Positions 1-4,130 of a DNA stretch of 4,267 bases are shown in pieces. The DNA is from a virus. Lineage: Duplodnaviria > Heunggongvirae > Uroviricota > Caudoviricetes. Position numbers and translations under genes: made by a program. The notes beneath the pieces are model-generated. The model had not been told where the DNA came from, made no database searches, and worked only from the letters and a program-made list of their open reading frames with translations. Numbering within the stretch: the first letter of the stretch is position 1; each line of letters opens with the position of its first letter. Location of the stretch: the IMG/VR virus record IMGVR_UViG_2693429584_000019; one strand, given 5' to 3'.

Positions 1-177
1 CTCCTCCGGCAGAAGCAGAAAAAGCTTATTATGCTTCCATCGGAAACGATGATCTGGCAGCCTGAGTTCACAGATAAAATACTCTCCAGGAAACCCGGGG
101 CGGTTCAAAGCAACTTGCAGCCTCTGTTTTGGCACAATCAAACAAAGGGCGTAAGTGACAAATTACAGGGAGAGTAA
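1..177 (+). CDS. 3' end of an unidentified gene entering from the left edge (58 sense codons, stop TAA 175-177), convergent with the integrase; first visible cargo gene of the asnT-linked element
   Basis: Frame 1 on the plus strand is the only frame open from position 1 to the TAA at 175-177. The stop sits in the loop of a terminator-like hairpin (166-187) followed by a T-run. Too short to assign a product. Confidence 0.3.
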   Translation, partial: LLRQKQKKLIMLPSETMIWQPEFTDKILSRKPGAVQSNLQPLFWHNQTKGVSDKLQGE

Positions 178-199
178 AACCTCCCTGCGTTTTTTATTT
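166..199 (+). terminator. Rho-independent terminator candidate, possibly bidirectional between the convergent left-edge ORF and the integrase
   Basis: Perfect 7-bp stem CAGGGAG (166-172) / CTCCCTG (181-187) with 8-nt loop, followed by CGTTTTTTATTT (188-199). On the minus strand the hairpin is followed by TAATTTGT, a weaker U-tract. Confidence 0.55.
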
Positions 200-228
200 A
201 CTACGATTGTCTGCTTGCTGGAAGGCGA

Positions 229-1503
229 TTATTGTTTCTGAGCAAACTCAAACGGCCTGACCATCCCATCCCGGTTTGCATCAAGATAATCTGCCCACCA
301 CTGTAGCATCAACCTTCGCTGCTCAAGATGTTTGGCCTTATGGGTATAGGCAGCACGAACGCTGTTGCTTTCCTTGTGGCTCATTTGAAGTTCTACCGCA
401 TCTTCAGACCATAGCCCTGATTCAATCAGAGCACTACATGCCAGCGTGCGGAAACCATGACCGCAGATGTCCTGCGTGGTGTCATAGCCCATCTTACGTA
501 GCGCTTTATTGATGGTGTTTTCACTCATGGGCTTGAACGAGTCATAACAGCCCGTAAAAATTAACCCCGCCTCATTACCTTCTTCATAGGTAAGCTGGCG
601 GATCTCTTTCAGTATTTTAAGAGCCTGCCTGCAGAGGGGAACGAAGTGCTGGCGTTTCATTTTTGCGCCACGCGTGGAATATTTGACGCGCTCAATCGCT
701 TCACGCTTTTCTGGTATTACCCATAACTTACTGTTGAAGTCGATTTCTGACCATCGTGCATAGCGGAGTTCACTGGAACGAATGAAAATCAACAGATTGA
801 GTTTAATCGCCAGTGTAGTTAGTCCACGACCTTTGTAGGCATCAATACGTTCAAGCAGTAGCGGGATCTCTTCCAGCTCCAGTGCAGGGCGGTGTTCCGT
901 CTCTGGTTTCTGGACAGCGCCTTCCATATCATAGGCCGGATTATGACGCATAAGCTTTTGCTGGACGGCATGACGTAGGATCGCGGTGATGTATTGCTTA
1001 ATCCGCATGGCAATTTCAAGGTAGCCGAGTGTTTCTGCATTTTTAATCGGAACAAGCAGATCACCCGTATCCAGATCTGAAACGTTGCTGTCGCCAATAT
1101 CCGGGAATACATAGGTCTCAAGGCGCTTCCATACCGTATCGGCGTAATCTTCTGACCATTTTGTTTTGGTGGCAAACCAGCTTCTGGCGACGACACGGAA
1201 CGAACGGGTTTTATCCCGCTTTTCCTGCAGCGCTTTTTCATCAGCCAGTTTTTTAGCGTTAGGATCGACTCCCTGAGCAAGCAGCTTTTTTGCTTCATCA
1301 CGTCGTTGTCTGGCATCAGCAAGAGAAACCGCAGGGTAAACACCAATGGAAAACACTTTCTGTTTACCATCGAAGCGATAGCCTAACTGCCAGTATTTTG
1401 AACCATTGGGATGCACAAGAAGGTAGAGACCAAATCCATCAGTGAGCTTGACGGCTTTTTCCGCTGGTCTGGCATTTTTTACTTTAGTATCAGTAAGTGA
1501 CAT
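229..1503 (-). CDS. P4-family (IntA-like) tyrosine integrase, 424 aa, apparently intact
   Basis: Supplied ORF 229-1569 trimmed to the ATG at 1503-1501 (MSLTDTKVKN...), preceded by GGAGGG 7 nt upstream. The product has the P4-family N-terminal region (GLYLLV..., PAVSLADAR) and the C-terminal catalytic region (HGFRT..., NSVRAAYTH...EQRR.M.QWW.DY) from memory of P4 Int. It lies about 180 bp from the 3' end of tRNA-Asn in the same orientation, the usual P4-type arrangement. Confidence 0.9.
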   Translation of the reverse strand: MSLTDTKVKNARPAEKAVKLTDGFGLYLLVHPNGSKYWQLGYRFDGKQKVFSIGVYPAVSLADARQRRDEAKKLLAQGVDPNAKKLADEKALQEKRDKTRSFRVVARSWFATKTKWSEDYADTVWKRLETYVFPDIGDSNVSDLDTGDLLVPIKNAETLGYLEIAMRIKQYITAILRHAVQQKLMRHNPAYDMEGAVQKPETEHRPALELEEIPLLLERIDAYKGRGLTTLAIKLNLLIFIRSSELRYARWSEIDFNSKLWVIPEKREAIERVKYSTRGAKMKRQHFVPLCRQALKILKEIRQLTYEEGNEAGLIFTGCYDSFKPMSENTINKALRKMGYDTTQDICGHGFRTLACSALIESGLWSEDAVELQMSHKESNSVRAAYTHKAKHLEQRRLMLQWWADYLDANRDGMVRPFEFAQKQ

Positions 1504-1520: not shown

Positions 1521-1567
1521 GCTGGTAAAACGCAAATCGAACCAGCTTTACCAGCATTTTTACCAGC
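1521..1567. repeat. Cluster of GCTGGTAAA / TTTACCAGC repeats between the integrase start and asnT; candidate Int arm-type or autoregulatory binding sites
   Basis: Plus strand: GCTGGTAAAA (1521-1530), ACCAGC (1541-1546), TTTACCAGC (1547-1555), TTTTACCAGC (1558-1567). These give one inverted pair (1521-1530 vs 1558-1567) and three direct copies of the ACCAGC core about 10-12 bp apart. Confidence 0.6.
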
Positions 1568-1644: not shown

Positions 1645-1671
1645 AGAAAGCAGACGTCAGTGAACGTCTGC
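1645..1671 (-). terminator. Hairpin immediately 3' of tRNA-Asn, possible tRNA terminator
   Basis: Perfect 8-bp inverted repeat GCAGACGT (1650-1657) / ACGTCTGC (1664-1671) with 6-nt loop. On the minus strand it is followed by TTTCTGCATTTAT, a U-tract of only moderate quality. Confidence 0.4.
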
Positions 1672-1682
1672 TTCCCTTAAAT

Positions 1683-1758
1683 TGGCTCCTCTGACTGGAC
1701 TCGAACCAGTGACATACGGATTAACAGTCCGCCGTTCTACCGACTGAACTACAGAGGA
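1683..1758 (-). tRNA. asnT: tRNA-Asn (anticodon GUU), 76 nt with encoded CCA
   Basis: Minus-strand sequence TCCTCTGTAGTTCAGTCGGTAGAACGGCGGACTGTTAATCCGTATGTCACTGGTTCGAGTCCAGTCAGAGGAGCCA folds as a cloverleaf (7-bp acceptor stem, T-loop TTCGAGT, anticodon loop CTGTTAA). It matches E. coli tRNA-Asn as I recall it. The asnT name rests on position next to mtfA, as in K-12 (serU-mtfA-asnT). Confidence 0.93.
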
Positions 1759-1858: not shown

Positions 1859-2656
1859 TTAATGAACATTCGTCGCCGAAAACGAGTCTGTATCATTAGT
1901 GCGATGTAGTCTCTGCAAAGGATCTTGTTGATAAAATTGGCAGAAACGTTGCCACAATGAAGGGAAACGAGGAGCAAAAAGTTCTGGGGCGCTAAAGAAA
2001 TATTCAGAAAGTACGGCAAAACATTCAGCAGGATCACTGGCAGCATAAGCATCAATGCTCGCCGCATTCTCGCCAACCAATTCGATTTCTTCCTGAATGT
2101 TGTTCATTGCAGCATGAAGATCGTGTTCCCAGCCAGCAACCTCACGCAACGGAATAAAGGGAACTCCGCTGGCGCGATCGCCGTTACGGGTGTCCAGCTT
2201 ATGAGCGACTTCATGAATAATCAGGTTAAAACCAGAAGCATCAAAAGAATCTTGTATATCCAACCAGTTCAAAACGATAGGCCCTTGCTGCCAGCTCTGA
2301 CCTGACTGAACAATACGTTGGTTATGCACCAGACCGATATCGTCTTCCCATTCATCATCGACCACAAATGGCGCAGGATAAATTAAGACTTCATGAAAAC
2401 CATCCAGCCATTCCAGTCCTAACTCCAGAACGGGTAGGCAAAATAGAAGTGCTATCCGGCAGCTTCTTAATGAATCCAGTTCAAAGCCCTGTAAAGGAAC
2501 AAGCCGCTTTTGCTGTAAAAAACGTTCGGCAAGAGTGACTAATTTGCTTTGTTCCTGTTCCGTCAGACACGTTAAAAGGGGGATCGATAGTGCTTCCTGC
2601 CAGGGAAGGGCAGTTTGATGTGCTGATTCTTGTACTTTCCAGGGCCACTTAATCAT
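1859..2656 (-). CDS. mtfA: MtfA (Mlc titration factor A; zinc-dependent peptidase with HExxH motif), 265 aa
   Basis: Supplied ORF 1859-2695 trimmed to the ATG at 2656-2654 ([11 protein letters not shown]...), stop TAA at 1861-1859. Contains the HEVAH zinc-binding motif and matches the E. coli MtfA (YeeI) sequence as I recall it. The divergent serU and downstream asnT fit K-12 synteny. Confidence 0.9.
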
Positions 2657-2705
2657 CGTTTTGCTCGCAAACTCGTCACTTGAACAAAATTGCACGGACA
2701 GGGAC

Positions 2706-2749: not shown

Positions 2750-2839
2750 GGAGAGATGCCGGAGCGGCTGAACGGACCGGTCTCGAAAACCGGAGTGGGG
2801 GCAACTCCACCGGGGGTTCAAATCCCCCTCTCTCCGCCA
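2750..2839 (+). tRNA. serU: tRNA-Ser (anticodon CGA), 90 nt class II tRNA with long variable arm and encoded CCA
   Basis: GGAGAGATGCCGGAGCGGCTGAACGGACCGGTCTCGAAAACCGGAGTGGGGGCAACTCCACCGGGGGTTCAAATCCCCCTCTCTCCGCCA. Anticodon stem CCGGT/ACCGG, loop CTCGAAA with anticodon CGA at 2784-2786, T-arm GGGGG-TTCAAAT-CCCCC, 7-bp acceptor stem. Divergent from mtfA as serU is in K-12. Confidence 0.92.
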
Positions 2840-2883: not shown

Positions 2884-2931
2884 ACTTGGAATTACTTGGA
2901 ATTACTTGGAATATTTTCTTGGAATATTTTC
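2884..2931. repeat. Tandem direct repeats spanning the stop codon of the lambda-type integrase: ACTTGGAATT x about 3 (2884-2912) overlapping TTGGAATATTTTC x 2 (2906-2931); candidate arm-type Int binding sites of the att region
   Basis: Read directly. The TTGGAAT core occurs four times (2886, 2896, 2906, 2919). The two perfect 13-bp units encode the integrase C-terminus (ENIPRKYSK); the 10-bp units overlap the TAA stop (2904-2902). The array lies 45-92 bp past the serU 3' end. Confidence 0.8.
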
Positions 2932-3927
2932 AGGTAACGGGACATCAAGTGTCGGTGAAACTTTAACCTTCCTGTCATAGATTAGCACTTGCCCCTCGGT
3001 TTTGTGACCAGAGAAAAGTTGCTTATCCCGACTGCTTCCTTCATAGTCTGAAATTCCTTTCGCCTTCAGATCATGAAAGGTGAAGTCGGTTAAAATACCT
3101 GAAATTTTGCCTGCGCGATTTCTTGCTTCTACCCACATTTCGTTAAAGCCTTTGTACATATATCGGTTGCCGTATTGATTACTGATTACATAGGCGGATG
3201 TTGGTAACTGTTTTGCTTTTTCGATCGCCGCCTGTAATCGTGGACTCCATGCTTTTATCTGTTTTTTTCCTGTTTTCCCTTGCTGGATAAAGATTCCGTC
3301 GTTTCCAATCTGCTCCCATTTCAGCGATAACACATCGGAAACCCTCGCTGCACACAGATAGGCAATTTCCATTGCGATAAAAACAGGAAGAGGTGCAACG
3401 CTTAATACTGCCTGGTATTCTTTGTCGGTTACATATCGTTCGCGGTTTTTGGCCTTGAATTTACTTACACCTGCACATGGGTTAGCCTTCACGTACCCTC
3501 GCTCATACCCCCAACTGTAAACGCGGGACATACTGCTTTTTTCATGGTTGGCTTGCGTTTTACTCTGTTCCCCTCTCTTGTCCATGTATCGACGGATGTG
3601 TTCTGGTTTTATGGAATCTGCCGGCACCTTACCGAATACGGCAAGCAACTTTTTTTGATGTTGCAGATAATCTTTTTGTGTTCTTGGACTGAGGTCACTG
3701 TAATAGGCGCTGGCGAGGAATTTTTCCCACAAGCGACCGAATGTCATTGCACGATCGCGATTATTTACAGTTTCCTCATACTTTTTCCATAAAGCAGCTA
3801 AACCATCCTTGATGGCGGTTAGTGTGACAGATTCTCTGGATGTTGGTTTCCATACATAACTATATTTATTTGGGTATACATTTGGAGGTAGTTTTTCGTG
3901 TTCAGGATTTTTCCTTCGTCTTCCCAT
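2902..3927 (-). CDS. int: Lambda-type tyrosine integrase, 341 aa, apparently intact
   Basis: ORF with ATG at 3927-3925 (MGRRRKNPEHEKLPPNVY..., compare lambda Int MGRRRSHERRDLPPNLY). The C-terminal catalytic region has H-x-L-K...GH-K...LIYDR with a candidate catalytic Tyr. The gene is transcribed toward the serU 3' end, the lambda-like int-att arrangement. Confidence 0.9.
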   Translation of the reverse strand: MGRRRKNPEHEKLPPNVYPNKYSYVWKPTSRESVTLTAIKDGLAALWKKYEETVNNRDRAMTFGRLWEKFLASAYYSDLSPRTQKDYLQHQKKLLAVFGKVPADSIKPEHIRRYMDKRGEQSKTQANHEKSSMSRVYSWGYERGYVKANPCAGVSKFKAKNRERYVTDKEYQAVLSVAPLPVFIAMEIAYLCAARVSDVLSLKWEQIGNDGIFIQQGKTGKKQIKAWSPRLQAAIEKAKQLPTSAYVISNQYGNRYMYKGFNEMWVEARNRAGKISGILTDFTFHDLKAKGISDYEGSSRDKQLFSGHKTEGQVLIYDRKVKVSPTLDVPLPENIPRKYSK

Positions 3928-4130
3928 TAGATTGCACCAAAATTCGGCTCTACCTCGCGTGGTGGTAAAGTTTTATTGCAGGTAAATAGATCCCGGCTGA
4001 CAATCGGTTTGCCACTACGATTGGTATAGAACGGAAGCCCGTTTTCCGTTAACCATTTTCGCTGGTGGCTTGCATATTTGCAGCCCGTTAATATTAGCAA
4101 TTCATCTTCGGTTAAAAATAAGTTGCTCAT
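3927..4130 (-). CDS. Small Xis-like protein (putative excisionase / recombination directionality factor, DUF4224-like), 67 aa
   Basis: ATG at 4130-4128. Its stop TAA (3929-3927) overlaps the integrase ATG (3927-3925) by 1 nt (minus strand ...CTAATG...), indicating translational coupling. The size, the position directly upstream of int, and the LTxxELxxLTG...WLxxNGxPF pattern resemble small prophage proteins found upstream of integrases. Family assignment is from memory, not a search. Confidence 0.6.
   Translation of the reverse strand: MSNLFLTEDELLILTGCKYASHQRKWLTENGLPFYTNRSGKPIVSRDLFTCNKTLPPREVEPNFGAI

Follow-up and report, generated by a model that had tools for sequence, protein, structure and literature searches.

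A probable integrative mobilizable element in asnT of Escherichia coli, with an IS1203 copy at the edge of its integrase-proximal region

Bases 1–1503 of the DNA analysed here (the window, meaning the whole stretch of 4,267 bases) very probably form the int-proximal end of an integrative mobilizable element (IME) that lies in the 3' end of asnT, with a copy of IS1203/IS629 inserted later in the first gene downstream of the integrase. The open frame that enters from the left edge and converges on the integrase gene is not a gene, but a chimeric, out-of-frame reading across the end of the IS and the tail of a small conserved gene. A preliminary description of this DNA had taken that frame for the end of an uncharacterised cargo gene beside a P4-family integrase and had proposed the region as a candidate variable or defence hotspot; the general form of this interpretation has partial support and its specifics are wrong, and overall the finding is ordinary and already explained.

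From left to right the window holds the open frame, the first of two integrase genes, the first of two tRNA genes, mtfA, the second tRNA gene, the second integrase gene and a DUF4224 gene (Table 1); an Rfam scan of the window finds nothing beyond the two tRNAs. The neighbourhood of mtfA, asnT and serU identifies the asn tRNA as asnT. The closest chromosomes are those of EHEC O111, with identities of 99.5–99.9%, and an exact match to the full window is absent among complete E. coli genomes, the best agreeing at 99.5%.

Table 1. Positions of features in the window, numbered from its first base
Feature	Position	Strand	Basis or remark
Open frame entering from the left edge (frame 1)	1–177	+	Artefact; shares its frame with neither real coding segment
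Right end of an IS3-family IS1203/IS629 copy	1–107	+	Ends in terminal inverted repeat ...CCGGGGCGGTTCA at 107
Final 20 codons with the stop (TGA 63–65) of IS1203 transposase orfB, frame 3	3–65	+	Annotation and translation
AAG, right copy of the 3-bp target-site duplication from IS insertion	108–110	+	IS-free versus IS-bearing sequence
3' remnant (16 codons and TGA at 156–158) of conserved 83-aa gene WP_000042272.1	108–158	+	IS-free O111 annotation and sequence
Intrinsic-terminator-like hairpin, 7-bp stem CAGGGAG/CTCCCTG, 8-nt loop, and T-run	166–197	+	Terminator scan
Tyrosine integrase, 424 aa	229–1503	-	Pfam domains
Three exact TTTACCAGC repeats	1521–1567		1521–1529 inverted; 1547–1555 and 1559–1567 direct, 12 bp apart
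att core, 25 bp (TTGGCTCCTCTGACTGGACTCGAAC)	1682–1706		Covers the 3' end of asnT
tRNA-Asn(GTT), asnT, integration target	1683–1758	-	ARAGORN; Rfam tRNA 72.6 bits; mtfA adjoining
mtfA	1859–2695	-	
tRNA-Ser(CGA)	2750–2839	+	
Second integrase	2902–3927	-	
DUF4224 gene	3927–4130	-	

The product of the integrase gene next to asnT contains the domains Arm-DNA-bind_3 (2.3e-28), Phage_int_M (1.5e-24) and Phage_integrase (1.7e-20), the same architecture as in the P4 integrase, with which it shares 50% identity over 417 aa (E=5e-153). The catalytic residues R242, H349-x-x-R352, H376 and Y386 align with identical residues of P4 Int, and a GGAGGG ribosome-binding site stands 8 nt upstream of the ATG at 1503. 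Judged from its sequence this is an intact tyrosine integrase of the P4 family, and the preliminary placing of such an integrase at asnT is borne out. It scores 248.3 bits against the NCBIfam integrase domain model PRK09692, whose cut-off is 434, and is thus a relative of that subgroup without belonging to it. The exact protein is encoded on many contigs, and about 240 of 5,426 complete genomes have an orthologue with at least 90% nucleotide identity.

Between the integrase gene and the tRNA gene lie three exact copies of TTTACCAGC, two of them in tandem. When up to one mismatch is allowed, six matches are found where 1.04 are expected, a number that none of 200 shuffles reaches, and the distal att end of an intact element in strain A31 has the same tandem pair. 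In phage P4, tandem arm repeats of 12 bp are annotated to either side of the attP core; those of the element are likewise in tandem, 12 bp apart and on both sides, although the two sequences differ (TTGGGGGCAT in P4). Because of the excess over chance, the distal copy in A31 and the parallel with P4, we interpret the repeats as putative arm-type Int-binding sites of attL. The 25-bp att core recurs 21.1 kb further on, where the A31 element ends, so that this element has the tRNA 3' end as a direct repeat at both borders and, like P4, integrates into the 3' end of a tRNA gene; no distal copy was found in the O111 loci. The order of tRNA, att, int and variable region given in the preliminary description is confirmed.

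The leftmost part of the window is not native island DNA. In the RefSeq annotation of O111:H8 2009C-3675 an IS1203 transposase extends across the stretch corresponding to bases 1–107, with its coding sequence ending at locus base 12065, equivalent to window base 65, and the transposase tail in frame 3 reads ...PPAEAEKAYYASIGNDDLAA*. Homology between IS-free genomes and the window starts exactly at base 108, as is true of most other O111 genomes. The IS-free sequence at the insertion point is acgAAGcaactt and that of the IS-bearing genome acgAAG-TGAACCGCCCCGG...[IS]...CCGGGGCGGTTCA-AAGcaactt, a comparison that places the end of the IS at window base 107 and reveals a 3-bp AAG target duplication, of which both copies are seen in 2009C-3675 and the window covers the right junction only. 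The outer 13 nt of IRL and IRR agree at 13 of 13 positions. With the left part taken from 2009C-3675, the copy has the terminal inverted repeats, the orfB 3' end and the 3-bp target duplication of IS3-family IS1203/IS629, and the window copy is like that element in its terminal inverted repeat TGAACCGCCCCGG, its orfB C-terminus and its target duplication alike. IS1203/IS629 has a high copy number in EHEC O111, and the copy here is ordinary apart from its rare insertion site: the junction between the IS and the 83-aa gene is present in one of 5,426 complete E. coli genomes, and all other matches break at base 108.

These boundaries account for the open frame at the left edge. Frame 1 does stay open from base 1 to a TAA at 175–177, with an ATG at 31, and its 58 residues match no Pfam family; the convergent open frame, its quoted residues and the position of its stop in a terminator hairpin were thus correctly described, but it is not a gene. 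Over its first 107 nt it reads IS1203 in the wrong frame and over its last 70 nt island DNA, so that it crosses the end of the transposase gene, the inverted repeat of the IS and what is left of the 83-aa gene, whose final codons are also read out of frame. The chance of a 58-codon open stretch is about 0.06 per frame, and its length is therefore unremarkable. A stop just upstream of the window, which the preliminary description had named as counting against a gene, occurs 17 codons upstream of the edge in the single complete genome having this junction, and inspection of the sequence before the ATG at 31 reveals no Shine-Dalgarno sequence. The frame-1 TAA falls within the loop of the hairpin, while the 83-aa gene has its true stop 8 nt ahead of that structure, which is the normal arrangement; the hairpin proper occupies 166–187, is followed by CGTTTTTTAT, and is kept in IS-free relatives, the loop in the window having one extra A. 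That frame 1 is the 3' end of a real and uncharacterised cargo gene is accordingly very improbable. From its stop to the integrase stop (229–231) is 51 nt, and the native island DNA beyond the integrase stop amounts to only 121 bp before the right end of the IS is reached. Beside int stand the tail of the 83-aa gene and the end of IS1203, and a start of the cargo directly next to it, as had been suggested, is not confirmed.

The 83-aa gene, whose 3' remnant the IS separates from its 5' part, is real. Translation in frame 3 after the IS end gives KQLAASVLAQSNKGRK*, the exact C-terminus of the 83-aa protein, for which a homologue search recovered 165 relatives of 82–84 aa spread over the Enterobacterales, Pseudomonas, Caballeronia, Acinetobacter and others, and an alignment of 21 sequences has 24 invariant positions. 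The protein has no significant match in Pfam, PADLOC or NCBIfam, and none of the homologues contains a Pfam domain. In some copies of the element the gene lies beside int with differing cargo and in others it is missing. Homologues in Dickeya are within similar MobA-TraD-PilV (Shufflon_N) elements and those in Pseudomonas are in ordinary chromosomal contexts, and these contexts of the distant homologues yield no functional clue. The gene represents a conserved, unannotated family, and it is not a defence marker.

The nature of the element was read from the annotated neighbourhoods of ten E. coli genomes and from contigs encoding the identical integrase. A common order is seen in O111, A31, PRO_A-1401, EC01, A38, SCEC020001, E189, 2023CK-01482 and A0 34/86, and also on the contigs: int, a variable slot, a PilV shufflon-type adhesin, a PilS-type pilin, TraD, a relaxase of the MobQ/MobA-MobL type, RepL, a Vis-like helix-turn-helix protein and the distal att. 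The intact element is about 21 kb between its 25-bp asn-tRNA repeats, and copies occupy either asnT or asnV, the latter adjoining nac. By annotation and Pfam the relatives have an integrase, att repeats and a relaxase and do not have a complete mating-pair formation system, PilS and PilV being the only type IV pilus genes present; this is the constitution of an integrative mobilizable element.

The similarity to P4 raises the alternative that the element is a P4-like phage satellite, which the preliminary description had considered, with the region beside int corresponding to the published psu-int anti-phage hotspot. Besides the 50% identity of the integrases, the intact A31 element encodes a Vis/ORF88-like protein and has its variable slot immediately 3' of int, as do P4-like satellites, in which that slot is rich in defence genes (Rousset et al. 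2022, PMC9122126). However, when the full set of 13 P4 proteins was compared by tblastn with four elements and with the window, Int and Vis/ORF88 were the only ones with counterparts, and alpha primase, sid, delta, psu, epsilon, cI, gop, beta and cII were not found. The element is thus without the replication, capsid-redirecting and helper-control genes of P4, and its backbone instead encodes the MobQ relaxase, TraD, RepL and PilS/PilV. The far anchor of the slot is pilV rather than psu/cos, and conjugative mobilisation would serve for its spread in place of P2 capsids. A satellite is therefore highly unlikely.

An origin as a remnant of the Yersinia high-pathogenicity island (HPI) or the pks island, both users of asn tRNAs, is less probable still, and we regard it as extremely remote. 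The HPI occupies the same asnT and has a P4-type int beside the tRNA, with ybtS converging on it, but its integrase is only about 55% identical to that in the window, and the DNA at the left edge is IS1203 and the 83-aa gene rather than ybtS. The cargo of the HPI is the yersiniabactin genes, and the annotations of the ten related elements inspected include neither ybt nor clb genes. The element is therefore not the HPI, to which the preliminary description had drawn a link, and an IME in asnT is the reading that we retain.

Among the relatives, homology is lost either within about 10 nt of the int stop or directly behind the 83-aa gene, and it is regained at pilV. The slot so delimited has nine different contents in ten genomes, a hand-picked sample and not a census. 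O111 has a type I CBASS with a cyclase matching PADLOC PDLC00802 (2.8e-149) and Pfam SMODS and a 4TM effector, which in its intact form matches PDLC00717 (7.9e-136); A0 34/86 has Thoeris, with ThsA (2.7e-207) and ThsB (2.5e-69); PRO_A-1401 has a type III restriction-modification system; 2023CK-01482 has a type III restriction-modification system (by annotation) and an SpnT/DUF6880 protein; and EC01 has a TIR protein matching PDC-S66 with two unknown genes. A gene for an NA37 nucleoid protein lies in the slot of 1504D004, and a P2-like prophage comes after it. PADLOC recognises nothing in the gene sets that fill the slots of A31, A38, E189 and SCEC020001, the last with an ATP-grasp gene and two further genes, and the proteins that were not recognised are of 338 and 232 aa in A31, 583 aa in A38, and 530 and 366 aa in E189. 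The CBASS assignment follows from a CD-NTase cyclase adjacent to a 4TM effector in relatives of the element, at a locus outside the window; relatives with the identical integrase carry the full-length cyclase and the S_4TM effector in the slot.

The proposed variable and defence-associated region beside int is therefore supported for the family, but it is not new. The interval between yeeJ and mtfA at tRNA-Asn is E. coli defence hotspot #16, a site detected in 897 genomes, with 393 occupied (Hochhauser et al. 2023, S1 Table, PMC10121019); erfK-nac at tRNA-Asn is hotspot #13 and mtfA-zinT at tRNA-Ser is #17, and IMEs are named among the frequent carriers of defence systems at hotspots (Hochhauser et al. 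2023, PMC10121019). The defence-carrying IMEs of hotspots #16 and #13 (Hochhauser et al. 2023, PMC10121019) use the same chromosomal sites as copies of the element, which likewise has an integrase, att repeats and a relaxase without a mating-pore apparatus. A 2026 preprint also treats defence genes on relaxase-bearing integrative elements on a large scale. Both the asnT defence hotspot and carriage by IMEs are thus already known, the integrase and tRNA site are annotated or published, and there is nothing new inside the window. Our literature search for the MobQ/RepL/PilS/PilV backbone or the int-pilV slot found no description, only general treatments, and the residual novelty is confined to this specific backbone and slot, outside the window.

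Compared with published IMEs, the element of the window's lineage is decayed, and is further broken by IS1203. O111 copies are without the RepL-bearing distal part, abut a truncated yeeL with yeeJ missing, have a mobQ that is either frameshifted or truncated, and hold further IS1203 copies. In E2863 mobQ, traD and pilS are lost and pilV and yeeL are truncated at an IS, and in 2009C-3675 a truncated mobQ lies beside a second IS. The three complete O111 genomes inspected each have the CBASS 4TM effector in three fragments, which tile one 306-position profile; an intact effector of 305 aa is kept by some drafts that encode the identical integrase. To this O111-type decay the window adds one lesion, the IS in the 83-aa gene, which is uninterrupted in the contigs from the exact-Int protein look-up, none of them having the IS junction.

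The IS at the window edge could also be the endpoint of an IS-mediated deletion or inversion, with the anatomy otherwise the same; the CBASS genes would then no longer lie upstream, nor would the 5' half of the 83-aa gene. O111 genomes have about 36–40 places that match window sequence, mostly IS copies, other IS1203 copies in the same island go with deletions (E2863 and 2009C-3675), and the left junction is beyond the window. In the sole complete genome with the identical right junction, however, the IS is a simple insertion, flanked by the 3-bp AAG duplication, and the gene's 5' half comes immediately before it, and we consider a rearrangement rather unlikely. A simple insertion of IS1203 in the 83-aa gene of an IME remains the favoured account of the left edge.

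Homology and synteny suggest how such an element would operate. Int together with the Vis-like excisionase would integrate it into asn-tRNA genes and excise it again, the relaxase would enable it to ride on a helper conjugative plasmid, plausibly of IncI type given PilS/PilV, and the slot genes may guard their host from phage. The O111 lineage would keep the element as a fixed remnant, since the distal att and the RepL-bearing distal part are missing, mobQ is damaged and the effector is split.

It is possible, though we hold this only tentatively, that the int-pilV interval, flanked by converging 3' ends, constitutes a compact two-anchor anti-phage hotspot like psu-int of P4, and PilS/PilV might retarget the thin pilus of an IncI-type helper. 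If the interval is such a hotspot, it would have been out of reach of the psu-based search of Rousset et al., and the unrecognised occupants in A31, A38, E189 and SCEC020001 would be new defence genes. An open reading frame that runs off the edge of a window beside a mobile-element gene should be compared with IS ends before it is called novel. P4-type integrases flag variable slots beyond the P4 satellites, so that psu-anchored searches miss some, and other genomes could be searched systematically for new defence candidates in the int-pilV slot of these IMEs.

The table lists the features of the P4-family integrase element, of its relatives in other genomes (L loci), and of the adjoining serU region. 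The TTTACCAGC repeats share the repeat layout of the phage P4 attP and are probably arm-type binding sites of the P4-family integrase. The strong hairpin beside asnT is presumably the tRNA gene's terminator; it lies between the att core and the putative arm-type repeats, and therefore belongs to the island-side attL arm.

Features of the asnT element, its relatives and the serU region
Feature	Locus	Coordinates	Strand	Position or content
Hairpin, 14-bp stem	window	1645-1676	-	directly 3' of asnT
TTTACCAGC repeats	window	1521-1567		between int and asnT
TTTACCAGC repeats	L004 (strain A31)	401-428		adjoining distal att copy
P4-type integrase, N-terminal fragment	L012	9019-9244		inside the additional DNA
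Lambdoid-type second integrase (341 aa); DUF4224 Xis-like gene	window	2902-4130	-	directly adjoining tRNA-Ser(CGA) serU
Two perfect short tandem arrays	window	2884-2931		ACTTGGAATT x2.9 + CTTGGAATATTTT x2.1; immediately 3' of serU
83-aa gene	L002	11800-12051		tail = window 108-158
PilS/PilV region	L003	8998-11071
PilS/PilV region	L004	15624-17697
PilS/PilV region	L012	14327-16400
int-pilV slot	L004 (A31)	17948-19699
int-pilV slot	L009 (A38)	6948-8699
int-pilV slot	L025 (E189)	5121-7853
int-pilV slot	L023 (SCEC020001)	5207-7312

In L012, whose genome encodes an identical integrase, ~1 kb of additional DNA separates mtfA/asnT from int, and the fragment of another P4-type integrase within it is probably a relic of an earlier asnT occupant. 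In strain 1504D004 (L008 1-8071 and 11890-17355) tail and ogr genes of a P2-like prophage come next after the slot adjoining int, and distal backbone genes of the integrative mobilizable element (IME; DUF6387, HTH, H-NS and RepL) are found across serU, on the opposite side. This layout points either to rearrangement or to the presence of another element at serU.

The second integrase and the Xis-like gene at serU mark where a lambdoid prophage ends. Hochhauser et al. 2023 (PMC10121019) list the mtfA-zinT/serU interval as hotspot #17. The integrase open reading frame is intact in the window and in the non-O111 genome CH10508; two other non-O111 genomes, A31 and PRO_A-1401, carry it in frameshifted form, and in the O111 genomes inspected (2009C-3675, E2863 and 8B) it is truncated, frameshifted or fused to the exonuclease gene. 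The tandem arrays overlap the final codons of this integrase, and may serve the prophage att site as binding sites of the arm type or close to the core.

The 83-aa gene belongs to a family of widespread small proteins that are rich in Ala, Ser, Gln and Lys and strictly conserved in length (82-84 aa). No Pfam model covers the family, and the label 'SMP domain-containing' is attached to one member (single source).

Of type IV pilus components the IME encodes just two, a major pilin of the PilS type and a shufflon-type tip adhesin, PilV; no further type IV pilus genes are annotated in the three elements (L003, L004 and L012). This suggests that the IME may provide an alternative pilin and adhesin for the thin pilus of a helper IncI-type plasmid.

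The int-pilV slots of A31, A38, E189 and SCEC020001 each contain 1-3 genes, for which PADLOC returned zero matches and Pfam signal is scant or absent; the matches are an MvdD-type ATP-grasp domain in SCEC020001 and a weak CoiA_N match in E189. Sister elements carry CBASS, Thoeris and type III R-M systems at this same position, and because of this shared location the slot genes of these four strains are candidate new defence genes.
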